In this document: piece after piece, positions 37,887 to 63,918 of the stretch
Layout: every line of letters starts with the position of its first letter
How positions within the stretch are numbered: position 1 is the stretch's first letter
Translations under genes and position numbers: made by a program
The notes under the pieces: generated by a model
What the model was told of the DNA's origin: nothing
Databases searched by the model: none
Seen by the model: only the letters and a program-made list of their open reading frames with translations
Assembly: GCA_963665235.2 (NCBI GenBank)
Contig: CAXXLX010000001.1
Location: 1,856,001 to 1,920,000, forward strand
DNA length: 64,000 bases
Reading direction: 5' to 3'
DNA from: Candidatus Poribacteria bacterium
GTDB taxonomy: Bacteria; Poribacteria; WGA-4E; WGA-3G

Positions 37887-38036
37887 TGGCTAATGGCTAA
37901 TGGCTGTTAGCAATTAGCAAGAGAAAGAAACAAAAGGGAGAAACCTCTAACGCGCGTCAGATATGTGTTTAGAATCACAAACCTCTTGCCAATTGCCAAT
38001 CGCCAATCGCCAATCGCCAATCGCTAATTGCTAATT
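37887..38036. repeat. Element with inverted arrays of 7-mers
   Basis: TGGCTAA/TTAGCAA units on the left, (GCCAATY)x5 plus GCTAATT on the right. The core resembles 3567-3617. Confidence 0.8.
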
Positions 38037-43833: not shown

Positions 43834-44496
43834 ATGTCACAACATGACCAGATTGCCCTTTTCAACGGTAAGGATATGACAGGTTGGCTCGCCAGGGGCG
43901 GAGCTGCACAACATGAATGGGCTGCTGTCGGTGCCGTTTCCCTGAATCCAGACGATAATAAACTGTTGGCAACGACCGCCGGTGAAGGAATCTTTTGCAA
44001 CGGGCCCACCGGGCGAACAGTCGATATTTACACGGAAGAGACACACGGTGATTGTGAGCTGCACGTTGAATTTATGGTGCCGCAGGGCTCCAATTCCGGT
44101 GTTTACGTGATGGGTCGGTATGAGATTCAGATATTGGATAGCTGGGGCGCGACTGAGCTCCACTACGGTACGTGTGGCGGTGTTTACTGTCGTTGGATTG
44201 ATAATAAACCTGTTGATGGCGTACCGCCGCGCGTCAATGCTAGTAAGCCGCCGGGGGAGTGGCAGACGTTTGATATCAACTTCCGTGCACCCAAGTTTGA
44301 CGCGGATGGCAATAAGACTGCAAACGCGCTTTTCGTGGAGGTCTTGTGGAACGGACAGGTGGTCCACGAAAACGTTGAGGTTGCTGGTTGTACACGGGGG
44401 GCGATGTTAGGAGAGGAAGCGGCGACGGGGCCCTTGCTTTTACAGGGTGACCACGGGCCGGTTGCTTATCGCAACGTGGTTTTGACCCCGGTTTAG
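43834..44496 (+). CDS. DUF1080 (3-keto-glycoside hydrolase-like) protein
   Basis: LFNGKDMTGW, SNSGVY, YEIQILDS, GEWQ and LQGDHG..YRN. AAGGAG RBS. Confidence 0.9.
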   Translation: MSQHDQIALFNGKDMTGWLARGGAAQHEWAAVGAVSLNPDDNKLLATTAGEGIFCNGPTGRTVDIYTEETHGDCELHVEFMVPQGSNSGVYVMGRYEIQILDSWGATELHYGTCGGVYCRWIDNKPVDGVPPRVNASKPPGEWQTFDINFRAPKFDADGNKTANALFVEVLWNGQVVHENVEVAGCTRGAMLGEEAATGPLLLQGDHGPVAYRNVVLTPV

Positions 44497-44506
44497 ACTG
44501 GACAAT

Positions 44507-45028
44507 TTACAGTGGGCCCGGAGGATGCAGGATATGATACGTTGCAACGGCAAGAGCGACGTGTACATTTAAGGAGCCGATTTTGCCGTACATCGGGAGG
44601 TAAATTGCTAATTCGCATGCATCTAAGGTCCGTCGGGAAACGCCGCGGTATTCGTTACCGACGACGAGGCATACTTTTTCGGGATATTCCACGGTGTGAT
44701 AAGGCACGGCATTTGACGCGACCTCAAGGGCACATGTGAGATACCCCTCTTCTGTGTATTTTTCAACGGCCTCGGCGGCGTATTTTATGGTGCGCCAGGG
44801 GACTCTGCGATGTGTGCCGCGCCCAATACCGGCGATGGTGGGATGTGGCGGGTGCGCGCTAATCCCAGCTAACACAATTTCGCGGGCTCTACATGCATCT
44901 GCAATTCTAAAGGTCGCGCCAACGTTAACCGGGTCTTCAACATCTTGTAGGACAAAAACGAGCTCAACCGCTGGCGAACCGTCCTGTTTTAAAAAACGTT
45001 TGAGTGCGTTGTTTCGTAACTGCTTCAT
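44507..45028 (-). CDS. TrmH/SpoU-family RNA methyltransferase
   Basis: DPVNVGATFR, VGNEYRG and PMYGKIGSLNV. Confidence 0.9.
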   Translation of the reverse strand: MKQLRNNALKRFLKQDGSPAVELVFVLQDVEDPVNVGATFRIADACRAREIVLAGISAHPPHPTIAGIGRGTHRRVPWRTIKYAAEAVEKYTEEGYLTCALEVASNAVPYHTVEYPEKVCLVVGNEYRGVSRRTLDACELAIYLPMYGKIGSLNVHVALAVATYHILHPPGPL

Positions 45029-45051
45029 TATTTTAAGGAATTATTTGGATT

Positions 45052-46111
45052 ATGGAAAAACTAAAACTCGGCATTATTGGTGCAGGTGGTATCGTCTGCC
45101 GGATGCATCTACCCGATTTAACGAACGGAACCGATTTTGAGGTAGCCGTAATTGGCGGTAGACGTGAACACCGTTTAAAATATCAGTGTGAAGAATTTAA
45201 CATTCCACGTTGGACGCAGGATTACGATGAGATTATCGCCGATGAGACGCTGGATGCGATTCTTGTCGGTACCCCGCATCCCCTGCACGTTTCGTGGGGA
45301 GTGAAGGCGTTAGAAGCGGGTAAGCATGTCCTGATGCAAAAACCGCTCTGCGGGGATATGGACGAGGCGAATCAGTTTGTCGCTGCGGCGGAAGCGAGTG
45401 GCAAAACGGTAATGTGCCTTCCACATTTCGGTGCGTCTATCTACAAAATCCGCGAACTTATCGCTGAAAATGCTATCGGCCGCGTATCCGGGGCGAGAAT
45501 GCGGAGCAGCCACGGTGGTCCAGAAATCTATTATGCTGAAATTCGCGACATTTTCGGTGAAACCGAGGACGATTTATGGTTTTTTGATGCTAAACAGGCT
45601 AGCGTCGGTGCCCTTTTTGATATGGGGGTTTACGCTGTCTCTGGTCTCGTTGCGATGCTCGGCACCTTCAAACGGGTGACCGGCTTCGTCTCCACGTTTC
45701 GATAAACCGACTGAACTAGAGGATGTCGCTACGCTGGTGCTTGAGATGCAATCGGGTGGCATTGTCACAGCCGAAACGAGCTGGTGCGACCCAGCACGTA
45801 CAGGTGAATCAAGTATCCACGGGACTGCTGGTAAATTTACAATGCCCGGTAAAGATGGCGCGGCAGTAACGCAGTGGACTCCTACCTCCTATACCCGCGA
45901 ACACGCGCCTGTTGATACTAAGTCAGTTGATTGCAGTGATGCTGCCCCGAAAGGTATGCATGCCCATTTCGCTGAACACATTCGAGCTGGCACACAACCG
46001 CCGCTCTCCAATGTTTACACCGCACGGCATGTGACTGAAATTATGCTTGCAGGACTCAAATCCTCTGAAACGGGAAGGGCAATTGAACTGACGACAACTG
46101 CTGACCAATAG
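45052..46111 (+). CDS. Gfo/Idh/MocA oxidoreductase with a 1-nt frameshift near 45698
   Basis: GIIGAG, GKHVLMQKP and GALFDMGVY. Removing one T from ACGTTTCGAT joins the frame to FDKPTELEDVATLVLEM. Confidence 0.85.
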
Positions 46112-46188
46112 TTAGGAAAACTGGACAGATGTCTTCATGTGATAAAGGGCAGAAAGTGCACCTACATGACATGAAGACATCTCAATAT

Positions 46189-46626
46189 TTAACCTAAACT
46201 CGCGTGAAATTCGTACCAATCGTCAAGGTTGTTAAGGTTAATCGCGTCTAAAATTGTTCCATCGTCTTCAATACCGCTTGCGCCGAGGATGCTCGTCCGG
46301 GTATCGTCGTCGTGATGGTACCCCTCAATTGCGGCGTTCAACTCGGCGACTGCGTCTTCGTCAAGGCTGCCACCGCTCTGCTCTAAGACCCATGCCTCAA
46401 ATTGCGGATAGGTGGGTGAATTGTCCTGGATATATGCCAGCGTTTCGTCTTTGTCGAGACCGAGAGCATCTAATACCATCTGATCATAACCCATTCCGCA
46501 TGCTGGATACTCTTCATGAAGAACGCCCTTGGCATCCATCAACACTTTTGACCAGAACCGGGGGAGGTGCAAGACACCGAGGGGACCAGCAACCCCGGAA
46601 CTGATTGTCGGAATCATTCCTGCCAT
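46189..46626 (-). CDS. DUF5069-like small protein
   Basis: GPLGVLHLPR.W.K and YPACGMGYD. AAGGAG RBS before ATG 46626. Confidence 0.7.
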   Translation of the reverse strand: MAGMIPTISSGVAGPLGVLHLPRFWSKVLMDAKGVLHEEYPACGMGYDQMVLDALGLDKDETLAYIQDNSPTYPQFEAWVLEQSGGSLDEDAVAELNAAIEGYHHDDDTRTSILGASGIEDDGTILDAINLNNLDDWYEFHASLG

Positions 46627-46783
46627 TTTGTTTTCTCCTTTTGTTGTTATTGCGATAGACACTGTTGCCCATCATGTGCAAATCTTCGGACGTAGTTTGC
46701 AAGTCTATCTTACAAACCGTTTTGATTATAGCACGAATTTTAAAAAAAGTGTAACAAAATTTTGGAAGTCCTGATTTTAAAAG

Positions 46784-46851
46784 TGGAAGGATGGAAGATT
46801 GGAAGGATGGAAGGATGGAAGGATGGAAGGATGGAAGATTGGAAGGATGGA
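46784..46851. repeat. 8-bp microsatellite, 8 copies
   Basis: (TGGAAGGA/TGGAAGAT)x8. Confidence 0.95.
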
Positions 46852-47278
46852 TTTCGCGCGTGTGTTGTCTGAATGCACATCGCATTTGAGCAAGTACGCC
46901 GCAAATCACGGATTATCGCGGAGGACACGGAGGCCGCGGCAAGAAGAGGTTTTCGAGCATGAAACATATTACCTGTCTGGGTTTAAGCGGTGGGACATTG
47001 CGTTTTGTATAAACATATCGCCCTTGAGGAGCGGGAAACCGTTTGCCCGAATACTGGGGCTAAGCCCGGGGCCGGTCGGTGCGGTTTTTTCTGTGTCCTC
47101 TGTGTAATCCGAGATTCTGACAAATCAAAAACGCGGACATGCTTTTGTACAAAAACTTTACGCACTCGTATGCTGGCGATGCGTTCTTGGCAGAATCGCG
47201 GGTTGGCGCGGATTACACGGATTTCGCGGGTTGTCACTTTGCAACATCAAGTTATCTGCTAAGCGGACAGCTTTTTAT

Positions 47279-48073
47279 CTATGGAGGCGTTAGCAGTGCG
47301 GCGATGTCCTCTGGTAGTTTAACATCATGTTTCTGTTCGAAGTCGGCAACGTTCGCGTAGGCGTTGTGAAATAAAGCAACGATATCCTTTTCCATGTCTT
47401 TGGCAGTTGCCAGGTCCGATTTTGCTTTTTCCCACTCTTGCAAGTGTAAAAATGCCATACCGCGATTGTAATATGCCTCGGCAAAATTCGGTTTGCGTTC
47501 TATTGCCGCGTTATAGTCTTCAATTGCCCGTTGATACTCGCCTTTTCGCGAATAAGCACTACCCCGACCGTTATAGGAATCTACAAAGTTCGGTTTAAGT
47601 TCTAGTGCCTTGCTATAGTCTACGATTGCGTTATTATACTCCTGTCTTTCAAAGTAAACGATGCCACGGTTGTAATACGGATAGGTAAAACTGGGCTCGA
47701 GTTCTATTGCTGTGTTATAGTCCTCAATAGCCCGCTCAATTTCACCTTTGAGTTTATAAACTATCCCACGATTGTTATATCCCACAGGCAAATTAGGCTC
47801 TAACCTTATCGCTTTGTTACAATCTTCGAGGGCGCGCTCGTAATTCCCTTTGATACGGTATGCGCTACCCCGATTGCTGTATGCCTCGGCATAGTTTTCA
47901 TCGCGACTAATAGCTGTGTTGAAGTCTTTAATAGCACGCTCAATTTCGCCTTTATTAGTATACGCAATGCCGCGGTAGTTATAAGGCCTGGCAAAACTGG
48001 GTTTTTCCATAATTAGTTTGGTAAAACGTTCGATAGCCCTATCGTTAGGATCTTGTCCAATTTCGGTCTTCAT
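47279..48073 (-). CDS. Tetratricopeptide repeat protein
   Basis: About six 34-aa repeats of the type AYxNRGxAYxxKGExxRAIEDYNxAI. Confidence 0.95.
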   Translation of the reverse strand: MKTEIGQDPNDRAIERFTKLIMEKPSFARPYNYRGIAYTNKGEIERAIKDFNTAISRDENYAEAYSNRGSAYRIKGNYERALEDCNKAIRLEPNLPVGYNNRGIVYKLKGEIERAIEDYNTAIELEPSFTYPYYNRGIVYFERQEYNNAIVDYSKALELKPNFVDSYNGRGSAYSRKGEYQRAIEDYNAAIERKPNFAEAYYNRGMAFLHLQEWEKAKSDLATAKDMEKDIVALFHNAYANVADFEQKHDVKLPEDIAALLTPP

Positions 48074-48075
48074 GT

Positions 48076-48768
48076 TTATGCCTCCGTTATGTTTGGCGTT
48101 GAGCCCATCGAGTCTTCTTCGGCTTGATAAATCTCTATAGAGGTTTTCTGATGGCTGCCTTGCTCTCTAATAAACCCATGGAGATCATTGTAAACGGTTT
48201 GTGTTGAGATACCGTGCTGTTTTCGCAGATGGTCTAATATCGGTTCCTTGAGTGATGCGGGAATGTCTATTACAGCGAAGTGTTCAGGTTCAATAAACCC
48301 CTTCGGTGGCCGAACGAATATACTTTTCTGTGCTATGATACGGTTTTGCGGGTTCCGAGGTTCTTTAATCTGATATTTTTCGTTTATCTCCTCACTTCTC
48401 TCCAACAAAATAATCCGGCCGGATTTTCCAAGTGAACCGTCACAGGCGAAAAAGAGAGCGATGTGGTTGTCTGTCGTAAAATCCACAAGATTGGTATGAC
48501 CGCCGTAGTGTTGGAGTTCTGTCAAGATTTCAAAACTATCTTCCTTGTAGGTATAGGCTTTAGCCACTTCCAGAATGTCTACTTGGATAGCTTCTATATC
48601 GAATTCCTCTGTTCCAATTTCTTTCTGGCATTCACGCCACAGACTTGAAGATACTTTCTCATAGTGTTGAGGTTCGCCGCGATAGATGAATCCGCCATCG
48701 GCGGTTGTTTCTGCTATCTTACTGACTATCTCTAAAATGCTGTTGCGTTCGGTTTCTTGTGTGTTCAA
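48076..48768 (-). CDS. FRG domain protein
   Basis: IYRGE, LQHYGGHTNLVDFT, ALFFAC and RIIAQKSIF. TTG start with GGAG. Confidence 0.92.
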   Translation of the reverse strand: MNTQETERNSILEIVSKIAETTADGGFIYRGEPQHYEKVSSSLWRECQKEIGTEEFDIEAIQVDILEVAKAYTYKEDSFEILTELQHYGGHTNLVDFTTDNHIALFFACDGSLGKSGRIILLERSEEINEKYQIKEPRNPQNRIIAQKSIFVRPPKGFIEPEHFAVIDIPASLKEPILDHLRKQHGISTQTVYNDLHGFIREQGSHQKTSIEIYQAEEDSMGSTPNITEA

Positions 48769-48805
48769 ACTTGCTCTCCATGATGCGAATTTCCGCTGAT
48801 GTTAA

Positions 48806-48834
48806 ATTATAGCATGTCCGCGTTCGCTTGTCAA
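48806..48834 (-). promoter_or_regulatory. Perfect-consensus sigma70 promoter for FRG-TPR
   Basis: TTGACA-N17-TATAAT with TG extension. Confidence 0.85.
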
Positions 48835-48917
48835 TTTCAATTTTGCGGGGTTGTCAGAATCACGGATTATCACAGATTACACAGATTTCGCGGATTATTG
48901 AGTTTGGTATCCGAACG

Positions 48918-49322
48918 TTATTTGCCGAATGCCAGGGCGAAAAGTACCTCTATCAGGTAAAAAACAGTAAGCGTGATAGAAAAAATGGCCGATAACCAAT
49001 TACATTTCGGTTTACCTTTGTGCTTGCTGAGATTCATTTCGAAATCGGTGTCAGTTTGTTGGCGGATTTCGTTGTAGACCTGTCGGAACAGTCGTTCCTG
49101 CCAGAGAAAGTACCCGTCCAGAATCCAAAATCCCGCGATGGTAAGTAAAACTCCCAAAACAAAATATGCGCCTTGCCCGGAGTTCTCTATAGCGCTTAAA
49201 ACCCTGGCTGCAACAAGGAGCGTCACGCTCCAACTTTTTACAAGAAGACTGTTCCGGCCTAAACGGTTAATAACGACTTGCGTCATTTCCAAATGCTTTA
49301 CGACTTTTTCAGTGCCGTCCAT
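48918..49322 (-). CDS. Small 3-TM protein, second copy
   Basis: KHLEMTQ.VINRLGRNS..K.WS and FWILDGYFLWQERLFR. AAGGAGG RBS; own promoter TTGACA-N17-TACAAT at 49400-49372. Confidence 0.8.
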   Translation of the reverse strand: MDGTEKVVKHLEMTQVVINRLGRNSLLVKSWSVTLLVAARVLSAIENSGQGAYFVLGVLLTIAGFWILDGYFLWQERLFRQVYNEIRQQTDTDFEMNLSKHKGKPKCNWLSAIFSITLTVFYLIEVLFALAFGK

Positions 49323-49705
49323 GAATCTATCCTCCTTTACCAGATTTGCAGGCTGATTGTGCGTTTGTTAAATTGTAATGCTTATAAGTGAATTTGTCAA
49401 TACATTTCTAAGGGAAATGCACGGTTTTAGGGGTGAATTTCTAATTGGCAGGGTTAGGGGTTGGCGTTTTCTTATTGTCTGAATCGCGGATTATCGCGGA
49501 TGACGCGGATTGCCTGTCTTGTCTGAATCGCGGATTATCGCGGATTACACGGATTTCGCGGATTATTGCCTCTGATGTCGGCAAGTTGTGTTATCTAAGA
49601 TTCCTAAAATGTTACCTATACACCGGATGCAGCTTTCTCAATGCGATCCGCCTAAAATCTGTGTCATCCGATAAATCCGCGATGAGGTTATTTGAATAAG
49701 TGTTC

Positions 49706-50755
49706 TTAAACGTTCAAAGAAAAACGAAGTCTTTCGTCCGCAGCAACCAATTTCTCCATTAAATACGTAATATCTACCCATTTTAGTTGTTTGGGGATCG
49801 TTCTTTCCTGGCTTATTATCCAACTAAGGATTAGACTGAGGTCAAATGCGTTTCTAGCTGGTGCGAATTTTTCTAGTACTTTTTCTTTCTGTACATAATT
49901 TCGTGGCTCGCTCGGATATGATGTAAGTTCGGAGGGTGGTGGAATCTTATTGGTACCATCAGTTTCTTGTGCTTCATCTGTTTTAACTTGAATATCATAT
50001 CCTTCCGTAGCGATATGGTATGCCCTTGCTGCCCTTTCGTAGTCCCATTTGTTTTTAACATCATTATCAATCCAATGTGCTAATGTTTGCAGGTTTACCT
50101 CAGCTCTTTTCCAACGCTTGTAAAATTCGCGCTCACCTGAAAGTTTTGTAAGATGATTTTTTAAGAATGAATAGATTTCATCTGCAATTATATCTGAGTC
50201 TAACTCCTTTTCGCTTTTGCGTTTTATCTTTTTGAACTTTACTTCCTGTGAAGATAACATCCCGTAAGGTATTCGGGTTCCGTATGTAGGTTCATACCAG
50301 CTTAGGCGGATATCTAAGGCTGTTCCCGGTTTTACTGCATTTAATCCGCTAATTTCAAGGAGAAGCGGAAAGTGTTCTGCTTTATCCAGTTCAGAGGGTT
50401 CTAATGTAAAACTGACCCACATACGTTCACCGTATTCTGTAATACGCAAAGTGGCTTCGGGAGACCGTTTATCAGACGCGACTAACTTCACTGCATGCAC
50501 TAATGCCTTGAATACGTCTCGGTGTTGGATAAGTCGGTATTGTTTTGAAGCGGTGCATACCGGTATGTCCTGACGATCTTTAATAAATTCAGCATCGATG
50601 CTGAGAGATTCACGTATTATGTTGTCAAGGTATTTATTGGTGCCGCCATTATGTAGACTAAATGGAACTCTTTTGAAGTGTGGAATCCAATTTATTAATT
50701 CGTTAACCGGTTTTTTGTGTACAAATGCTTCTCTACCTTCCCATTTTAGTGTCAT
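49706..50755 (-). CDS. Hypothetical protein, weakly DUF932-like
   Basis: SKQYRLIQHRDVF and TEYGERM. GGAGG RBS before ATG 50755. Confidence 0.55.
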   Translation of the reverse strand: MTLKWEGREAFVHKKPVNELINWIPHFKRVPFSLHNGGTNKYLDNIIRESLSIDAEFIKDRQDIPVCTASKQYRLIQHRDVFKALVHAVKLVASDKRSPEATLRITEYGERMWVSFTLEPSELDKAEHFPLLLEISGLNAVKPGTALDIRLSWYEPTYGTRIPYGMLSSQEVKFKKIKRKSEKELDSDIIADEIYSFLKNHLTKLSGEREFYKRWKRAEVNLQTLAHWIDNDVKNKWDYERAARAYHIATEGYDIQVKTDEAQETDGTNKIPPPSELTSYPSEPRNYVQKEKVLEKFAPARNAFDLSLILSWIISQERTIPKQLKWVDITYLMEKLVAADERLRFSLNV

Positions 50756-51095
50756 ATTACACCTCCATATCAGTGTTTTCCACAATCGTAATCTGCTTTC
50801 TGCCGTGCTGCCATTTCTATCGCAGCATCAGATTTTGCTGGCACGGGTTCCGGTTCGGGTTCAGAAAACGCAGTCTCAACATCTTCCTCAAGATAACCCT
50901 CAACGCTTTCAGGTTAGGACTGCACTTCTTCAACAGGTTCAAGTTATGTTCCCTTAGTATATCATACAATTAAACGATTTTCAAGGAAAAAGAATTCGCA
51001 CTGGTTTGTATGTTGGCGGTGCGTTATTGTCTGAATCGCGGATTAGCACGGATTACACAGATTACGCGGATTGAAAGAGGATTCGCGATCTGTAG

Positions 51096-51581
51096 CTATC
51101 TGCCTGCTTGTTTGGCGGCTTTCTCTATCCAGTTTCCAAGGTTGGCATAACCGTTATCAGTAACCCAGTCGTAGTACGAACAACAAGGGTAAACAGGGTT
51201 AGTGGTAGGTCTAAAGTTAAAGGGGGATTGACTAAAAGGACATGCTCCTTTAGGCGATGTCCAACCGTACCTGTTTTTAACATTATTGATGTGCACCCCA
51301 AGCAAACCATTGCCCTTTTCAATACTTTTCTCGATTTCGTACTTGACCCATCTGCTATTAGCAGTTTGACTGCCAATCAGAACACACGTCACAGACGTAC
51401 CGTCCATCTGCTTATCTATCCATCGCTTGATGGCAAGATCAGTATTTCTTTTTAGTGTTTCGATTTCGGCACTATCAACAAAACCTGCTGCTGTGTAACT
51501 GCCTTTCGCAACCCAACTGTATCGGACTTGATTGACGCGCCAAACATCATCCCAATCAAAACTGAAAAATACATGTCTCAT
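51096..51581 (-). CDS. ThsB-like TIR-domain protein (MTH538/DUF1863 type)
   Basis: RHVFFSF, RVNQVR, TSVTCVLIG.QT..SRWVKYEI (catalytic Glu) and YDWV.DNGY.N. GGAG RBS. Confidence 0.9.
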   Translation of the reverse strand: MRHVFFSFDWDDVWRVNQVRYSWVAKGSYTAAGFVDSAEIETLKRNTDLAIKRWIDKQMDGTSVTCVLIGSQTANSRWVKYEIEKSIEKGNGLLGVHINNVKNRYGWTSPKGACPFSQSPFNFRPTTNPVYPCCSYYDWVTDNGYANLGNWIEKAAKQAGR

Positions 51582-51597
51582 AGCAACTCCACATAAA

Positions 51598-52005
51598 CTA
51601 AAAAAAATAGACAATTGCACAGACAAAAAAGACTTCGATGAGATAAAAAATGACAAGTGTTTGGGAAAAAATAGCGGAGCCCCGGTTACACTTCGGTTTA
51701 TCTTTGTGTTTACCAACATTCATCTTGAAGTCGGTGTCAGTTTGTTGGCGGATTTCGTTGTAGACCTGTCGGAACAGTCGTTCCTGCCAGAGAAAGTACC
51801 CATCCAGAATCCAAAACCCCAGGATGGGGATCAAAAGCACCAGAGCAATATATGGATTTTGCAGCTCCTGTTTGGCGATTAAGACCATTGCTGCAACAAG
51901 AACCGTCATGCTCCAACTTTTTAAGAGAAAACTGTTGCGCCCTAAACGGTTAATAACAGCTTGCGTCATTTCCAAGTGTTTTACAACTTTTTCGGTGCCA
52001 TTCAT
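51598..52005 (-). CDS. Small 3-TM protein (candidate effector between two TIR genes)
   Basis: Three hydrophobic segments and AAGGAG RBS. Near-identical blocks to 48918-49322. Confidence 0.8.
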   Translation of the reverse strand: MNGTEKVVKHLEMTQAVINRLGRNSFLLKSWSMTVLVAAMVLIAKQELQNPYIALVLLIPILGFWILDGYFLWQERLFRQVYNEIRQQTDTDFKMNVGKHKDKPKCNRGSAIFSQTLVIFYLIEVFFVCAIVYFF

Positions 52006-52061
52006 GAATCCATTCTCCTTATGTTTGTGGCCGCTTAATAGTCGCCATTTAAACGACCTAT

Positions 52062-52637
52062 TTACCGCAATCCATGTTCTTTTTGTAGTTCGTACGCTTT
52101 TCCTAAAAGCCAACTACCGGAGCGCCCTCTCTTAATCCTATCGAAAATTTCCGAGATAGTCTCAGCCCAATTTTTTACATCATCAAGACTTCCGAGTGGT
52201 GTTCCTAAAGAGATGAACTCAGGATGGTTACCTGATGTGACTAAATGTGCGATAAGAGGATTAGGAGCTAGATCTGGAAAAGGGCCAGGCGAATTTTGGA
52301 ATGGCTTAACGAATCTCTGGCGTCCTCGGGCTCCGCCAATCTCATATGGGGGCCACGGCGATGTGAAAGTTTGTGGACTAATTACACCTAAAAGTGCCGA
52401 TGCCACATCTAACCCTTCTTCAACGCAACGTGCAATTTCATGATGGGGACTATCCTCTGGCAAGCGCGCATCTTTTTTGTCAAACCAGATGTCAAGTTCG
52501 TATGTGTTCTGGACTATATCTGCACATTCTTCAGCCCATTCCGCGTCTGGTGATTTATTCCTATAAGAGATAAACACGATCTTTGTTGTTGAAGATATTG
52601 TAGATCTCCTAAATTCACAGTAGTTTATTCCCGGCAT
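52062..52637 (-). CDS. TIR-domain protein
   Basis: VFISYR, DIWFD and LLGVIS.QT..SPWPPYEIG (catalytic Glu). GGAGG RBS. Confidence 0.85.
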   Translation of the reverse strand: MPGINYCEFRRSTISSTTKIVFISYRNKSPDAEWAEECADIVQNTYELDIWFDKKDARLPEDSPHHEIARCVEEGLDVASALLGVISPQTFTSPWPPYEIGGARGRQRFVKPFQNSPGPFPDLAPNPLIAHLVTSGNHPEFISLGTPLGSLDDVKNWAETISEIFDRIKRGRSGSWLLGKAYELQKEHGLR

Positions 52638-53062
52638 TTTAACTTGCCTCCATTTAGAACATTTTGATTGATAACAGCACTGCGGGAATGTAGAGACACC
52701 TCCCTGAACATTTCCGCCCTGCTGCCAATTGATTTTAAATTTACCATATCTAATAAAAAAAAAGCAAGAAAAAACTAAACTTATTTTTTACCTGATTTAC
52801 CAGAAGGCACGTTCTTCAGGATAACCAATTTCTGTCCAATAGAGCGAAACTCTGATGGCCCAACGGATATGTGAGAGTGTCCAGTCCATCAAAAACGACA
52901 ATCGGTTCTAAATCGATAAATTTCACAGATCTGCTTGTCCTAAAAACCCGAGTACTCCATATAATCCGCGACTCAGACACTCCCCTCCACAATCGCAATC
53001 TCATCTTCTGTTAAATTATACAATTGATATACCCGTTTGTCAATCTCTTCTTCCTGCATAGC

Positions 53063-54385
53063 CAGGGCCATTTAGTTTTAGGAATTTTTTTCCTATCTGT
53101 TATTATTTTGATTTGGACAGATGCAGCGTGACTTTTTTCGCTGCATCTGCTATACTTCACTGTAAATAAAATAATCCTTTTTTTTAGGAAGGTTGAAGTA
53201 TGTTACTCAGTATATTATCACAAATTGTAGATCCACGCAAGGCAAAAGGCAAACGGCATCCTTTGGTTTCCATCCTTGCTCTTATTATTATCGGTTTTCT
53301 GTGCGGTCATACAGGTTATACGTCTATAGCGACCTGGGCCCGCAATGAACCTGAACTGGCTGAAGCGTTAGGTTTCCGTTGTGGGAAGACCCCGTGTCCT
53401 GCCACGATTCATAATCTGTTTAAGCATCTTGATATAGAAAGTTTAGAAACCGCCCTAACCGAATGGGTGTCTTTACAACTTGCGGCTCTTGAAGGGACAG
53501 ACCCCTCGGGTTTGAAAGGCATTGCTATAGATGGTAAAGAACTCTGCGGTTCCATAGACATAGACACCGGCCGCCGAACCCATTTACTCTCCGCTGTCTG
53601 TCATGAGTTAGGGGTTACCCTTGCACAATGTGCCGTCAGTCACAAGACCAATGAGATACCTATTTCCCGGCAACTGCTGGAAAAGTTTGATGTCAAAGGA
53701 AAAGTGGTGACAACGGATGCTCTATTGACCCAACGTGCTTTTTGTAAAGAACTTATCAAACAGAAAGCCTATTATGTGCTGCGTGTCAAAAAGAATCAGA
53801 AACAGATGTATATCGATATTGTGTGGGTCTTTGCCCCCCTTGTAGAGACGGACCCCCCCGAGGTGCAAGCACGCAGACTTCAAAACGCACACACGCAAGC
53901 AGGGGCACACCTACAAACGCACACCGATGTTGAAGAAACACGCGGATTTATCATCACACGCATCCTAACAGCTAGCACAAGCGTGTCAGATTATATTGAC
54001 TGGCCGGGTCTTGCACAAGTCTATCAATACAAAGTGCAGCGCGTCAATACCAAAACAGGTGAATGTGAAACTTCTATCCAGTATGGTATCACTAACTTGT
54101 CGCCCGAAGAGGCAACAGCGGAAGACTTGCTAAAACTACACCGAGAACATTGGACGATAGAAAACAAATCCCACTGGGTTCGAGACGTGGTTTTAGGAGA
54201 GGATGCCTCAAAAGCAAGAACAGGCAGCATCCCCCAAGTCATGGCAGCTTTACGCAACACCGCACTGGCAGTCTTACGATTTGCCGGTTATACGAAAATC
54301 ACCGAGACAATACGATCTTTCGCCTCAAAACCTAAACTCGCAGTTAACCTCATCACATGAAAATTCTTAAAACTAAATGGCCCTG
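53063..54385 (+). mobile_element. Complete ISAs1-family insertion sequence (1323 bp)
   Basis: Inverted repeats CAGGGCCATTTAGTTTTAGGAATTT / AAATTCTTAAAACTAAATGGCCCTG. 10-bp direct repeat CCTGCATAGC at 53053-53062 and 54386-54395. Confidence 0.97.
53200..54360 (+). CDS. ISAs1-family transposase
   Basis: DPR...KRH, IAIDGK, KTNEI, VTTDALLTQ, VKKNQ and HWTIEN.SHWVRDV..GED. Confidence 0.97.
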   Translation: MLLSILSQIVDPRKAKGKRHPLVSILALIIIGFLCGHTGYTSIATWARNEPELAEALGFRCGKTPCPATIHNLFKHLDIESLETALTEWVSLQLAALEGTDPSGLKGIAIDGKELCGSIDIDTGRRTHLLSAVCHELGVTLAQCAVSHKTNEIPISRQLLEKFDVKGKVVTTDALLTQRAFCKELIKQKAYYVLRVKKNQKQMYIDIVWVFAPLVETDPPEVQARRLQNAHTQAGAHLQTHTDVEETRGFIITRILTASTSVSDYIDWPGLAQVYQYKVQRVNTKTGECETSIQYGITNLSPEEATAEDLLKLHREHWTIENKSHWVRDVVLGEDASKARTGSIPQVMAALRNTALAVLRFAGYTKITETIRSFASKPKLAVNLIT

Positions 54386-55653
54386 CCTGCATAGCGGTGT
54401 CCGCATTTGGATTCCCCGCTTTCGCTTCAAGAATTTCATCTACTAAATCAATAATAGGGGTTTGTTCCTTTTTTGCCGGCATAGCTATGGGTAATTCGCG
54501 AACAACCTTAACCTTCACTTGTGCTTGGCTCTTGCCCTGTTCTTGTGATATCGAATGATAGATATAGTTCATCAAACGACTATTAAATAACGCCAGAAAA
54601 TACTTTAGGTCCGTTTTTTGAGATTTGGGGAGAATCGTATGCAGCGTGTTATCTGTGTAAAAACGTCCCAATTCGGCTTCGCTATGATAGGCCACTATTA
54701 AATCATCGTCAGTTTGACGCATAAGCAAACGTTCGGGTTGATGATGGTTCCTAATATCACCGCGAAATTTCCAGTATTCGTTTCGTTTACTCGGTTTTCC
54801 CCCTCGACCAATTCCGGGAATTGGTAGCGGCTCGTAGTTGACATCACAGAACATGTATTTGGCTTTTGAGGAAGTCCACTGCACCGAGTATTTTTGAATT
54901 TGCCTTCCTTGTAAGAGGCGATGTCTGCACCCGTTGTCTTCCGAAAAGAAAATTTTAGATCTGACATTTCCTGAATCAATTCCAGTGTCCAAGACCTCAC
55001 AGTATTTTCCCACCTTATCAAGTGCCAAAAGTCTTAACACCCAATCGTTTTTTGCACTTAACAGGAATTTAGAGTCTGGTATTTTGTTGATCGCTGCGTA
55101 TTCTACTGCACCGTTTGAGTGGTATTGAAAATCGGGAAAGTTCATTTCTCCGCTCATGTAGGAATGCTGATCTTCTACCTCCGATTTCAACAAAATAAAA
55201 ATAGCCGTATAGATAGTGGCTTCAAATGTGTTCGCTGGTGCCTTGACTAAATGAAGTAACCTATTTTCCAAAAACAGGTTACGAATCCTACGTTTTGTGG
55301 GCAGCGCGACGTAACTGTCATTAGCAATATATGCAAAAATCCTATTCTCGGCAGTAAGCTTAAACCCAGCAAAGATAAAGTAGTCGTATAAATCACCTGC
55401 CCAGCCGTAACTCTCTCTGAGCTGGTTACGCATTGTGAGAGATAGGTGTTCACCTTTTGCATAAGGCGGATTGCCAATCACTACATCAAATCCATTTGCA
55501 ATGCCAAACATCCGTTCCGAGTCAAACCAATCAGCAGTATCGTTTTGGTCATAAATATCCCATTTGGCGATCTTTTCGGCATCATCTGCTGGCATACCGA
55601 CATATTTTAGCTCGGTTGCCAATTTTGTTCGCAATCTTTTATCCTTAGTCTTA

Positions 55654-55801
55654 TACCATTTTTATTAATTATTCTATCATTACCGGTTGTTAGAAATGAA
55701 ACGGAGAACGGAAGACCCAAACTAAAAGTTTATGCTACAATAAAGAGCACAAACTGGAAGTTTATGCTACAATAAAGAGACATTTTCAATTAGAAATGGT
55801 A
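55654..55801. mobile_element. 148-bp MITE with TTA target duplication, carrying two REP-like units
   Basis: Ends TACCATTTTTATT / AATTAGAAATGGTA. TTA at 55651-55653 and 55802-55804. Excision restores R-A-C-K-T-K-D-K-R-L-R in frame. Confidence 0.85.
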
Positions 55802-57965
55802 TTACATGCACGTTTGCGTTTGCGGGTAGTGGCGTGGAAGTGCTGTTCACGGTTGTTAAGCAGTTCACGTTCCAAACGTTGTGCCTTTTCGCTTGTTAGT
55901 GTCGGGTTCAGATCTATCAGCGTGTTGGCAGCGATAAACCGCGTCTCTAAATTCGGCAACGGTTTAATACCAAAATTCTCTGCGTTCTGCATCGGTTCCT
56001 GCTCAATTGCAAGCGAGATAAAAAAGCGGAGTTTAGCGATTTGACACGCAATCGGTTGGATATCCACCCCGAAGATAGTGTTTTGGATTAGGTATAACTT
56101 CCGTCCGAAGTCTGAATCTCGGTAACGCTCAAAGGTAGCACTGATTTCGGTAAGTTCGACATCGCGTTCCTGTTGGTCGGACGTATCAAAAGCCTCGGAT
56201 GCGCGTTGTGTCGCAAGTTCCTTCTGCAATTTTTCCCATCGGGTGTTATCTGGGTCAAGCCGCCGGAGTGCCAGTGTCAGTTTGTGGAGCATTCCCATTG
56301 GGAACGCACCGGAACCGACCGCCGGATCGAGGACTTTAAGTTCGGAAATTGCTCGGACGATTGCGTCTGTCTCGACATCGTCAAACCATTCGCTTGCATC
56401 GTCAAACTGCTGTGCATAGTCGAGGAGATAGTGTAACCGCTCCTTCCAGAGTTCTGCGTCGCCGTCGGTTGGGGCACACTTTTGGGAGAGCGTCGCGACC
56501 AATGCTGTCCTCTACCATATAGTCGACGATAGCACGTGGGGTGTAGTAGGAGCCTGTCTGTTTTCGTGCCGTTGCCCCGGTTTCTGGATTGTAGGCGGCG
56601 AGTAGGTTTTCAAACACCTTGCCGAGCAGCTCGGGGTCCAGTGCCACCTCCTGCTCTATCGGTGTGTTCTCCTCAACGGTGAATTTGTAATGCTCAAGTA
56701 GGGGGAGGAGTCCTCGGTTTTTGTCAAAAAAGAGGCGGTTGGGGATAGATAGTTTGTGGTACTGATTATCAGAGAAACAGTCTATTCTGTAGCTCTTTTC
56801 ACCTGTTGCTTTGAAGGTATCCAGACAATCGAACAGTCCGCCGTTGATGAAGGGGGTTTGTGCAAAGAGGGATAGCAGTTTATCCGGGTCGCGCATCTGT
56901 GCTTTATATCGGTAGCAGGAGAAATCGCGGTTCGTATCGTAGGTTTCTTTGCTAAACCTACGTTTGTCTATTTCGGTGTTGAGTGTAGCGAAAAAGAGGT
57001 TTTGTAGCACGGCGCGATAGTAGGAGTCGCCGGTATCAAAATTATCCTCTTTGAGTAGGTCTTGGATTTGTGTTTTGTTGAACAACTCCTCAGCCACCAA
57101 CCCTGTTGCTTGATAAACCAGATAAAGAGCAGTCGTGTGATGAGGCGGATGACATGCTCCTCCGGTTTCTATGACACGGTTTTCATCTGTCGGGAACGTC
57201 GATTCTTTAACTGCCCATTCAAACCATGCGAACAGTTTTCGATAGAACTGTTTGTTGAGTTCTTCGGTGTCCAGTTTGGCGAGCCAGGCAGCGAGTAATC
57301 CGTCGAAGTTTTTCGGTTTTTTGTTGCTAACCATCCACTCTGCACACGTTTGTAGAGAAAGTTCGGAGAGGATATCGCGATGTGCGCGATGTGGGTTGTT
57401 GAGGCGGATGTCTTTGATGAGGGTGACCTGTCCGAGCACATCGCGGTCGCCATCAATTTTGTCTGGACGACGGTCGGCAAAGGCAACCGTCAAACGAGCC
57501 CCCGCGCGAAACAGGATCACAGTGGGTGTGAACATACGTTTGTTAATTTCTCGTGTGAACGTAGCGTATTTAGTCCGGGAGTAGGTGTTATCTTTCAATT
57601 CCACTGCACAGAAAAGGAAACTTTCTATGTTTCCCTTATCAAACGACCCTGCCTCAAGAAGCGTCAACTGCTGCTCCCTGGCGACTTCGTCGCTTGTGAA
57701 TTGGAACACTATTTGGACAGATTCGACGTTGTTGCGGAATTCCTGTTCGGTCTTAGTGTTGACGTTCTCTGCTGGAAAATCTTCAATAAATTCATCTACT
57801 GAGTCGATGCGTTCATGTGTGCGTTCACTGCGGTACCCCAAGGTTGCCAGGAGGTTTTTTGATTTTTCAAGAAAATCGCCGGTGGACATTGCTGATAGTG
57901 AGGCGTTAATTGCATTTCTGCTCGTCATGTGCGTAATCTCTGCTATTCTGTTGAGAAAATCAAGG

Positions 57966-61432: not shown

Positions 61433-62311
61433 TTAACCATCTTGGGCGGCTGCGCCACTGACAATTTCTGATATTTCTGTTGTGATTTGGGTTTGACGTG
61501 CTCTGTTACGTTGTAGGACCAATTCGTCGATGAGCTCTTTCGCTTTTTGGGTAGCGTTTTCCATCGCTGCCATTCGGGCGGCTTGCTCCGCTGCGTTGGA
61601 GTCTAATAACACCTTCCACATTTGCATGTTCAGATGCTTACCGAGCAGCATCTCAAAGAGTTCTACCTGCCCCGGTTCATAGATATAATCGAGAAAAAGT
61701 TCATCGCCTTCGGGGGTTTCAGGGACAAGGGGGAGCAGCTGCTCAACGAGTACTGTCTGGAGGATAGCAGATTTGAAGTTGTTATAGATAACCTCAACCT
61801 TGTCAATTTCTTTGTCGATATAGAGGTGTTCAAATTCATGAACGACATCGACAGCCGTTTGGAATTCAAGTTGGCGGAAGATATTGATGTATGCATCGGT
61901 GATGTCGTATCCGCGGCGTGAAAAATGTTCCTGTGTACGTCTGCCTATGCAGATAAGCGTCACGTCTGCACCGCCCTCCTGATAATGTTCTATCCGTTGT
62001 GTGGTGGTCCGGATGACGTTGCTGTTGAAACTTCCGCATAACCCCCGGTCGCCGGAGACAGAGATGATACAGACATGTTTGAGTTCTCGGACCTCAAGCA
62101 GGGGATGTGTCAACGCTTCTGTCTCAATGTCCATCTGTGAAATCAGATGTCCGAGGATAGTGTTGAGTTTATCTGCGTAGGGGCGCGTTGCGGTAATGTT
62201 TTCTTGTGCCCGACGGAGCCGCGCGGCAGCGACAACGCGCATTGCATCGGTCACCTGCTCAATGTTTTTAATACTGGCGATGCGTCGCCGAATTTCTCGT
62301 AGGGTTGCCAT
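61433..62311 (-). CDS. atpG: F1 ATP synthase subunit gamma
   Basis: LREIRRRI, DRGLCGSFN, ARMAAM.NAT and RQTQITTEISEI. Confidence 0.98.
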   Translation of the reverse strand: MATLREIRRRIASIKNIEQVTDAMRVVAAARLRRAQENITATRPYADKLNTILGHLISQMDIETEALTHPLLEVRELKHVCIISVSGDRGLCGSFNSNVIRTTTQRIEHYQEGGADVTLICIGRRTQEHFSRRGYDITDAYINIFRQLEFQTAVDVVHEFEHLYIDKEIDKVEVIYNNFKSAILQTVLVEQLLPLVPETPEGDELFLDYIYEPGQVELFEMLLGKHLNMQMWKVLLDSNAAEQAARMAAMENATQKAKELIDELVLQRNRARQTQITTEISEIVSGAAAQDG

Positions 62312-62313
62312 GG

Positions 62314-63918
62314 CTATTCACCTTCTGCCGGGGTTTCTTCTGTCGCTGGAGTGGCATCTTCAGATTGCGTGTCCTCTATTTGGATTTGCGGCATCGGTGT
62401 GTCACTCCAATTTTCCTTGAACGTTTTAACAGCAGCGTGTAAGGTTTGTAGCAATTCATCGCTCAGCACTCCGGTTTCCGAGATTTCGGAGAGGAGCTCC
62501 GCGTGATTCCTGTCGAGGTATTGCAGGAATTCTGCCTCAAACCGGGCGACTTCTGATTCTGGTACATCATCTAAGTAGCCGTTAGTGCCGCAGAAGATAG
62601 AGGCGACCTCGCGTTCAACAGGCATCGGTTGATATTGCGGTTGTTTTAGCAATTCCACGAGCCGTGCCCCGCGCAGGAGCAGCGATTGTGTTAATGCATC
62701 CAGATCGGACCCGAATTGTGCAAAGGCAGCAACCTCGCGGAAACTCGCCAAATCGAGTTTAAGGGTGCCCGCCACCTCATCGGCTTTCATGGCTTTTACC
62801 TGTGCGTCACCGCCAACACGCGAAACAGATATTCCGACATCAATTGCTGGTCTCACCCCTTTGTTGAATAGGTCCGTTGTGAGATATATCTGTCCATCGG
62901 TGATAGAGATAACGTTTGTGGGTATATAGGTAGTCAAGTCGCCTTCAAAGATTTCGATGATAGGGAGTGCGGTAAGGGAGCCGCCGCCCAATTCGTCGCT
63001 AAGTTTTGCAGCGCGTTCTAACAGGCGTGAGTGGAGATAAAAAACATCCCCGGGGTATGCTTCGCGCCCCGGTGGTCTACGTGAAAGGAGCGACATTTGG
63101 CGGTATGCCCATGCATGTTTCGTTAAGTCATCGTAGATGATGAGTGCATGTTTGCCGTTATCTCGGAAGTATTCGCCCATGGAGGTGCCAGAGTAGGGGG
63201 CGATATACTGGAGCGGAGAGGGGGCACTTGCAGCGGCGGAGACAATGGTCGTATACTCCATTGCATTGTGTTCCTGAAGGGTGTTTGCAACTTGTGCCAA
63301 CGTAGAGCCCTTTTGACCGACAGCGACATAGATGCAATAGACATCCGTGTTTTTCTGGCTCAGAATAGCATCTATTGCAATAGCAGTTTTGCCGGTTCGC
63401 CTATCCCCGATGATGAGTTCCCGCTGTCCTCTACCGATGGGTGTTAGGCTGTCAATCGCTTTTAATCCTGTGTAAAGCGGTTCACCGACCGGTTGCCGTT
63501 GAACGATGCCTAGTCCTTTCTGTTCGACGGGGAGTGTGTGTTCCGTATGGATTTCTCCCAATCCATCAATCGGTTGTCCGAGGGCATCGACGATGCGTCC
63601 GAGGAGGGCTTCGCCTACGGGTACTTCAGCGAGTCTTCCGGTGCGTTTGACGGTATCGCCTTCATGTATGAGTTGGTCTTCACCGAACAGTACGCACCCG
63701 ACGTTGTCCTCTTCAAGGTTAAAGGCGATGCCGTATATATCGTTTGGGAATTCAATCATTTCGCTTGCCATTGCGTTAGCAAGCCCATGCACCCGTGCGA
63801 TTCCATCGCCGACCTCGAGCACAGTGCCGGAGTCATAGATGTCTACGTCCTGTTCGAACTGTTGGAGCTGTTGTTTAAGGATATTTGATATTTCGTCCGG
63901 TCGGACTTCTCTTGCCAT
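62314..63918 (-). CDS. atpA: F1 ATP synthase subunit alpha
   Basis: [45 protein letters not shown] and SVSRVGG. Confidence 0.99.

Follow-up and report, generated by a model that had tools for sequence, protein, structure and literature searches.

Organization of the defence island

The window analysed here is a 64,000-nt stretch of DNA from a member of Candidatus Poribacteria (G000:C1:1856001-1920000, where G000 denotes the source assembly, which is 92.6% complete, and C1, C2, C3 and C4 are its contigs). It harbours a defence island (~46.7-61.3 kb) located between a DUF5069-like gene, recognized by a weak Pfam match below the curated cut-off, and atpG. In part of this island, gene units are followed by copies of a short non-coding repeat, which is the subject of this study. 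We call a copy of the repeat an arm; it consists of an 18-nt core, TTGTCWGAATCRCGGATT, followed by a variable run of 9/10-mers. Both borders of the island are synteny breaks relative to other genera, and the relatives that we compared all represent other genera, none being of the same genus as G000. In window coordinates, the features are the following.

46784..46851, plus strand: tandem array of the 8-mer TGGAAGGA, 8.5 copies, a module found before the core in many copies genome-wide
46865..46935, plus strand: degenerate arm, its core split by a ~37-nt insert and followed by three 9-mers (46907-46932)
47089..47123, minus strand: arm with core at 47106-47123 (1 mismatch), placed back to back with the following arm at a distance of 63 nt
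47187..47230, plus strand: arm with core at 47187-47204 (2 mismatches), closing a conserved junction module (tail, spacer, arm) after the TPR gene
47279..48073, minus strand: gene for a TPR protein, partner of FRG, whose C-terminal tail is part of the conserved junction module
48076..48768, minus strand: FRG-domain gene, PDC-S15 in PADLOC
48806..48834, minus strand: perfect (12/12) match to a sigma-70-type promoter for FRG-TPR, -35 hexamer 16 nt from the outer end of the core
48851..48898, plus strand: arm, core and four 9/10-mers; an orthologous arm lies upstream of FRG in 11 of 14 FRG-TPR loci
48918..49322, minus strand: second PDC-M50A membrane-protein gene, absent from the orthologous island of G094
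49372..49400, minus strand: promoter-like site, 11/12
49475..49566, plus strand: two direct arms, cores at 49475 and 49519
49640..49683, minus strand: degenerate inverted 9-mer run without core
49706..50785, minus strand: gene for a 359-aa protein, DUF932-like by protein Atlas features only
50956..50984, minus strand: promoter-like site, 10/12
51027..51075, plus strand: arm after the M50B gene; G094 has an arm at the same place and in the same orientation
51096..51581, minus strand: ThsB-type TIR/PDC-M50B gene
51598..52005, minus strand: PDC-M50A membrane-protein gene
52062..52637, minus strand: TIR_2 gene
52963..52980, minus strand: core only (2 mismatches), holding the TGA of the methylase tail (53058-52972)
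53063..54386, plus strand: ISAs1-like insertion sequence with a DDE_Tnp_1 transposase (53200-54360), ends approximate as they derive from contig pieces
54288..61253, minus strand: rest of the island, with pieces of an Eco57I/TaqI_C-type methylase, a 508-aa protein without assignment and a PLD-SNF2 helicase, syntenic with G094

A search of the window for the core, allowing up to three mismatches, returned 7 matches against 0.28 expected, and none of 100 shuffles gave 7. The cores, at 47106(-), 47187(+), 48851(+), 49475(+), 49519(+), 51027(+) and 52963(-), all lie between 47106 and 52980, and four of the seven are followed by runs of 9/10-mers. Likewise, 11 of the 12 matches to the 9-mer CRCGGATTA fall within 46.9-53.0 kb, the remaining one being at 9533. 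The original prediction, made from the sequence of the window, had noticed the repeat nowhere else in it, and this holds (7/7 cores are in 47.1-53.0 kb). It had also placed a repeat within about 0-50 bp of the last stop codon in each of five co-oriented units, and we found distances of 0-48 nt: 0 nt for the methylase tail, whose TGA stop lies inside the core at 52963-52980; ~20 nt for the M50B TIR gene (stop 51096); ~22 nt for the 359-aa gene (stop 49706), reaching the degenerate inverted 9-mer run at 49640-49683; ~19 nt for the second M50A gene (stop 48918); and ~48 nt for the TPR gene (stop 47279). For the promoters predicted in at least two units right after the preceding repeat, promoter-like sites are present at 48834-48806 (12/12) and 49400-49372 (11/12), with a third at 50984-50956 (10/12); the promoter-like sites of the region total 7, fewer than the shuffle mean of 13.6. 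Two other claims stand only in part. The predicted restriction-modification (R-M) unit does have a repeat at its stop codon, but it consists of no more than the 3′ end of a methylase gene interrupted by the ISAs1-like element, and the repeat is a core alone in the opposite orientation. The gene thought to have been copied into a separate unit does have a paralogue there, the second PDC-M50A gene, but the two are diverged (74% protein identity) and their homology is confined to the coding region. By our estimate from the sequence, arms account for about a quarter to a third of the island spacers.

The repeat is dispersed through intergenic DNA

With at most one mismatch allowed, the core occurs 129 times in G000 (72 times on the plus and 57 times on the minus strand), whereas the reversed core, used as a control, gave no match. 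Most cores (119/129) are intergenic and occupy 102 intergenic regions, and their distribution over convergent, tandem and divergent contexts (17/73/29) matches the corresponding shares of intergenic length (0.11/0.62/0.26). Seventeen of 81 solo arms are oriented as in the island, with the core towards the start of the next gene and the 9-mers towards the end of the previous one, and 33 have the opposite orientation; no genome-wide rule of orientation or of proximity to stop codons was found for these 81 arms. Housekeeping genes flanked by the repeat include carA/pyrC, nadC, lpdA (lipoamide dehydrogenase), gap (GAPDH), rpe, ruvX, disA, trkH and mntR, and restriction-modification, PtuA-like, FRG and transposase genes were also seen in 40 sampled regions. 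Using PADLOC (E ≤ 1e-12), we compared 40 random repeat-bearing regions, the window's own island being left out, with 40 length-matched repeat-free regions. Defence genes were detected in 15/40 and 8/40, respectively (p=0.14, not significant), and in 11/40 and 8/40 (p=0.60) once four generic-domain matches were removed. Among gaps of at least 60 nt, 210 of 2214 carry an arm, at a rate that ranges from 1.5% at 60-150 nt to 48% at >1200 nt. The five consecutive arm-bearing gaps of the window are the longest run in the genome; in length-stratified permutations of the same gaps, a run of at least five appeared in 121 of 2000. Beyond G000, 34 of 41 related genomes, representing 3 of 4 families, contain the core, in up to 335 copies.

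At a tolerance of two mismatches, 207 cores were collected, 17 adjacent pairs of which face core-outward. Such paired (doublet) units fold as long hairpins (z -4.5 and -3.4), and the arm pair of the window at 47089-47230 folds as well (z -2.8). Single arms do not fold (z +0.56 for 48840-48920 and -0.98 for 51015-51095).

These results bear on the integron analogy of the original prediction, according to which the repeats would be capture sites comparable to divergent attC sites in an integron or in a cluster of attC sites lacking integron-integrases (CALIN). The island does resemble such arrays in that short co-oriented units are each followed by a related repeat and in that boundaries of unit gain and loss lie at repeats. 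However, no integrase was found, the tyrosine recombinase family PF00589 matching once in the assembly as a whole (C2:247386-247913) and nowhere in the window. In addition, the single arms are unfolded and show no imperfect palindrome, the units have promoters of their own, a search of 44000-57000 against Rfam gave no match at E ≤ 0.1, and the 129 copies are dispersed beside housekeeping genes. The latter distribution is the one that the prediction itself had named as speaking against a capture site. An integron or CALIN array can hardly be upheld on these grounds.

A closer parallel is provided by repetitive extragenic palindromic (REP) sequences, bacterial interspersed mosaic elements (BIMEs) and REPIN-RAYT systems (REP doublets forming hairpins together with REP-associated tyrosine transposases) of enterobacteria and pseudomonads. 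These are short dispersed intergenic repeats which occur singly, as hairpin doublets or in mosaic clusters, and which flank a low-copy enzyme gene. The poribacterial repeat is likewise intergenic, is present in tens to hundreds of copies, forms single arms, inverted doublets and mosaic clusters, flanks a low-copy enzyme gene and coincides with strain variation. It differs in that the flanked gene encodes a PD-(D/E)XK protein of the GxxExxY family and not a Y1 transposase (RAYT), and in that an arm is an 18-nt core with tandem 9/10-mers and not a single short palindrome. A RAYT/Y1 transposase was considered as a partner and rejected: PF01797 has 13 matches, and for the 10 that were checked the nearest core is 1.7-85 kb away. 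Pneumococcal BOX elements, Neisseria Correia elements and Porphyromonas BrickBuilt miniature inverted-repeat transposable elements combine a fixed end module with variable short sub-repeats and are found near promoters and gene ends. Our repeat can be likened to them by its fixed end module and variable number of sub-repeats, but there is no sequence relationship, and we know of no nuclease gene associated with these families. The arm described here has a strictly conserved 18-nt core, and its single copies form conserved junction modules of defence-gene units.

The arms bracket a GxxExxY nuclease gene

The only PF13366 (PDDEXK_3, GxxExxY) gene of G000 (C1:348236-348580) is located between a (-) arm and a (+) arm, with gene-less inverted pairs on both sides, and falls in one of the two densest 10-kb clusters of cores. 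The original prediction had suggested looking for a co-occurring recombinase or nuclease family; G000 has this nuclease gene between arms and the single tyrosine recombinase match on C2. We then examined 25 strong PF13366 loci of related genomes, allowing up to three mismatches in the core; 14 have a core within ~230 nt, and no core was found up to 1 kb from the remaining 11. A maximum-likelihood tree of 26 PF13366 proteins places all 13 core-flanked genes (core with at most two mismatches) in one clade (14 rows, support 100/98), and no such gene occurs in the two remaining clades (12 rows). Out of 500 shuffles of the labels, not one required so few changes, indicating that arm type tracks the nuclease lineage.

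The association extends beyond Poribacteria. An exact-match search for the core over 596 Gb, for which ~69 chance matches are expected, revealed clustered exact cores, among the matches listed, in Saprospiraceae, Sphingobacteriales, Flavihumibacter and a metagenome-assembled genome (MAG) of Spirochaetae, as well as in Fibrobacter, Ignavibacteria, Anaerolineae and Desulfobulbus records. Single cross-phylum matches could be due to chance; clusters cannot. The core is accordingly conserved to the letter across poribacterial families and in other phyla. PF13366 genes are present in all five non-poribacterial genomes with core clusters that were checked, and in the Spirochaetae MAG the same core and 9-mers bracket the GxxExxY gene. 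The same repeat thus brackets a PF13366 gene in G000, in G094 and in this MAG, which places it with a GxxExxY mini-cassette. PMC3424549 lists the function of the GxxExxY family as 'Unknown'. Our literature search found no description of repeat arms for GxxExxY, PDDEXK_3, PF13366 or TIGR04256.

Two more genes were seen between inward-facing cores, one encoding a DUF6807 protein (G000:C1:3676534-3677669) and the other a D12-class N6-adenine DNA methyltransferase (G000:C2:545521-546549). The only PF05635 (four-helix-bundle) gene of G000 is bracketed by arms of a different, 7-mer type. Arrays of the 7-mer type GCCAATC at window positions 37988-38036 match the arms of this gene (L010, G000:C2:250767-254084), and GCCAATC-type arms represent a second cassette-arm family in the same mosaic.

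Orthologous islands differ at arms

The G094 genome, which represents another genus, contains an island with the same gene order: PLD-SNF2 helicase, the 508-aa protein fused to the methylase, M50A-M50B, a fragment of the 359-aa gene and FRG-TPR. G000 and G094 have arms in common at four places: one follows M50B, one follows TPR, one precedes the FRG promoter, and one lies at the methylase stop, which falls within the core in either genome. Since no fewer than four arms are shared in this way, the array of the window has been largely inherited and not recently built, and at least four local arms appear to be old and to have come down with the island or with the FRG-TPR module. Where the two islands differ, the differences border arms. 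Homology stops exactly at the core/9-mer junction at window position 52963 and restarts at an arm, at 48906. Where G000 has ~330 nt and TIR_2, G094 has five tandem hairpin units and a PDDEXK_3 gene (E 3.7e-38). G000 has an extra arm-bounded segment (49700-48907; arms, promoter and second M50A) that separates the 359-aa gene from the arm located upstream of FRG, and in G094 the 359-aa gene is truncated behind a duplicated promoter module. In another island, that of G054, genes for TIR-TPR, the 359-aa protein, TIR-TPR, Schlafen/AlbA_2, M50A and PIN are each separated by arms of one orientation.

Homology of the 359-aa gene among genomes covers the coding region only and ends at 49683-49685 in 3 of 5 comparisons. 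In G013 there is no arm within the 18 kb examined around it, and in G067 the only arms are ~7 kb away. Synteny of the island flanks is not conserved in other genera, and flank-based mapping of breakpoints gave nothing. In a self-BLAST of the genome, 74 of 5774 ends of high-scoring segment pairs (HSPs) lie near a core edge.

The FRG-TPR unit and strain differences

FRG genes are found in 134 of 159 genomes of the order, and we compared 14 FRG-TPR loci from three genera. In 11 of them an arm, degenerate in three cases, lies upstream of FRG with the core end 16 nt before the -35 hexamer; the arm is missing in the other three, which still have the promoter. The alignment reveals a conserved junction module made up of TPR tail, spacer, 9-mers, core and promoter.

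The constant position of this arm could point to a regulatory element, the phased 9/10-mers and core providing binding sites, bent DNA or insulators for adjacent transcription units. The 16-nt distance is kept in 11 of 14 loci across three genera, the spacing of the 9/10-mers is about one helical turn, and in every unit of the island a promoter-like site comes after the arm that precedes it. Elsewhere, however, the distance from core to promoter varies (16, 42 and 74 nt within the window), arms genome-wide face gene starts and ends alike, the promoter persists at the three arm-less loci, and single arms form no terminator-type hairpin. Taken together, a regulatory function as the main explanation of the repeat is quite improbable.

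The last 13 codons of TPR (KLPEDIAALLTPP) recur with the following spacer as a module, at window 47279-47330 and at L110:9400-9460, 11700-11750 and 12220-12270. This TPR-tail module is coding at the ends of TPR genes and non-coding after other genes in G094, G013 and G067, so some repeat modules may supply or mimic gene 3′ ends.

A duplicate of the FRG-TPR unit was found within the genome: window 47193-48848 matches C2:575400-577094 (84% identity, 1699 nt). The two limits of the match are 6 and 3 nt away from outer core ends, and the C2 copy has an arm at its 3′ end only. No other single finding speaks as strongly for a 'promoter-gene-repeat' unit, but copying from one element end to another, or an exact loss of one arm, would explain the duplicate equally well.

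Two regions of C1 have haplotigs with ~99% identity, contigs C3 and C4, and the assembly therefore mixes at least two strains. Eight structural differences from C1 were identified. In C3, two arm units have been gained or lost with the junction at the core end, beyond which identity drops from 99.5% to 88%. In C4, a 3.5-kb two-gene indel has copies of a neighbouring mosaic module on either side, as a 68-nt direct repeat. The remaining differences involve an insertion sequence ~90 nt from a core (1), other interspersed repeats (3) and coding or tandem repeats (2). Structural variation is thus seated mainly in repeats, and gene units would be removed or added by recombination between directly repeated copies. 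Together with the G094 island and the FRG-TPR duplicate, the strain-variant contigs thus agree with the original proposal that breakpoints of gain and loss fall at repeats. Of eight public read runs listed, none of them recorded as RNA, four were examined, all as short Logan contigs that break at repeats; joints at 46.8-53.1 kb are mostly repeat-to-repeat with sides of 21-38 nt, too short to show excision. One joint, 47165-to-53063, most likely comes from another copy of the insertion sequence.

Origin and role of the arms

The identity and distribution of the repeat, its association with the nuclease gene and the finding that boundaries of indels and duplications fall at arm ends are probably best explained by a REP/BIME-like selfish intergenic mosaic element that acts as portable homology, without an integrase-type capture system. 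The family is modular, non-coding and interspersed, with an 18-nt core and a variable 9/10-mer run that is often joined to other modules. In its complete form, two inverted arms make up a long hairpin, and such arms also bracket the small PD-(D/E)XK 'GxxExxY' gene. Since the complete form brackets a PDDEXK_3 gene, the copies in the window would be gene-less, mostly single arms of that mini-cassette, and the repeat appears to be derived from, or to co-evolve with, the arms of the GxxExxY nuclease cassette. Arms would have spread through intergenic DNA genome-wide and have been tolerated in the spacers of this defence island, where they may act as selfish DNA, portable homology or break-prone ends. 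Recombination at arms might then add, delete or swap promoter-gene units. What is retained of the capture or recombination site originally proposed is that the repeats, as far as sequence comparison can tell, mark where reshuffled defence units join; a dedicated capture site is considered unlikely.

Several observations weigh against this explanation. Four relatives with many cores, G015 (335), G017 (172), G003 (170) and G021 (98), have no PF13366 match, so copy number is not tied to the presence of the nuclease gene, and the exact geometry of (-) arm upstream and (+) arm downstream is seen in only 4 of the 25 loci of relatives. Single arms are co-oriented relative to genes in the window island, in G054 and in G094, which random insertion would not predict. 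The coincidence of boundaries with arms is partly expected, as arms fill much of the spacers and homology of diverged paralogues often stops at gene ends, and most of the 74 HSP ends near core edges come from multi-copy gene or insertion sequence families and do not provide a clean test. The intergenic counts rest on gene calls of G000 made with a rough, purpose-written gene finder. Finally, mobility and recombination are deduced from comparing sequences, no event having been observed directly.

Alternatively, the repeat could belong to a dedicated nuclease-driven cassette system. GxxExxY or another trans-acting enzyme would cut the outer end of the core, and units of promoter, gene(s) and arm would be excised and inserted at other arms or secondary sites. 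Such a system would account for the FRG-TPR duplicate, which spans core end to core end and has an arm only at the 3′ end of the C2 copy, for the strain-variable arm unit that joins exactly at the core end, and for the G094/G000 difference that begins exactly at the core/9-mer junction. It would also fit the co-oriented arms that separate the defence genes of G054 and G094, the nuclease cassette inside the G094 island, the D12 methyltransferase and DUF6807 genes between inward-facing cores in G000, and the letter-for-letter conservation of the core across families and phyla. However, arms flank housekeeping genes in every orientation and their association with defence genes is not significant. 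The 359-aa gene lacks flanking arms in G013 and G067, with homology limited to coding sequence, breakpoints fall at differing points of the arm (outer end, inner end, array edge), and orthologous arms have stayed put across genera. Moreover, arm-rich genomes can be without the nuclease, and no excision joint was seen in the reads, which gave only repeat-to-repeat joints with 21-38-nt sides. We consider such excision and insertion unlikely, and it is similarly doubtful that the arm, with its core and 9-mers, serves as the active end of a cassette system that depends on a nuclease and crosses phyla, with which Poribacteria would assemble and reshuffle defence islands without an integrase. A REP/BIME-like mosaic element remains the reading that we favour.

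Other features of the island

The three genes at 51096..52637 are predicted from their domains to form a Thoeris-like unit (TIR_2, PDC-M50A and ThsB-TIR/PDC-M50B). Assignment to Thoeris-like/PDC-M50 systems is based on the TIR gene beside M50A and on matches to PDLC04686 (1.2e-36) and PDLC00431 / PDLC04688 (2e-59 / 7e-55). The two PDC-M50A paralogues (49020-49135 and 51700-51830) have ~78% mean nucleotide identity, yet share a ~90-nt identical stretch, which suggests gene conversion between them. The protein Atlas groups the 359-aa protein with DUF932 clusters (score 0.97), no more than a lead, and a Pfam search gave no match. Homologues of its gene are present in 38 of 121 genomes of the order, and a metagenome scan with the protein produced 94 pattern matches, 0 of them confirmed.

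The ISAs1-like element cuts the last 28 codons (52972-53058) off the Eco57I/TaqI_C-type methylase. The methylase is also interrupted at 55640-55785 by a ~146-nt non-coding element with 32-nt tandem units, where G094 has 28 nt. This element has at least 40 near-full copies in the genome at 93-100% identity (154 matches altogether), and its contig depth in public runs is ~7000, compared with ~25 on the flanks. Given the two insertions, the R-M/DISARM-like system is probably inactive in this strain. The C-terminal coding tail of the methylase (53015-53043) contains a perfect TTGACA-17-TATAAT facing the TIR_2-M50A-M50B unit. A split core with the same ~37-nt insert occurs in the window (46865-46906) and at G000:C1:~1002180-1002240; the insert looks like a smaller element nested in the core.

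At the island border the ATP synthase operon is split. The genes atpA-atpG (61433-63918) stop there, and atpD is found on the opposite strand, 120 kb distant (G000:C1:2038118-2039494). In 5 of 5 relatives examined atpD follows atpG, which suggests an inversion with a breakpoint at the island.

Implications

The integron analogy is replaced by a tested identification of the closing repeat as an arm of a small nuclease cassette. As arms lie at the junctions of defence-gene units and at strain differences, they are a concrete candidate for the reshuffling of islands in these defence-rich sponge symbionts. The conserved core offers a direct substrate with which the function of the GxxExxY family can be probed.

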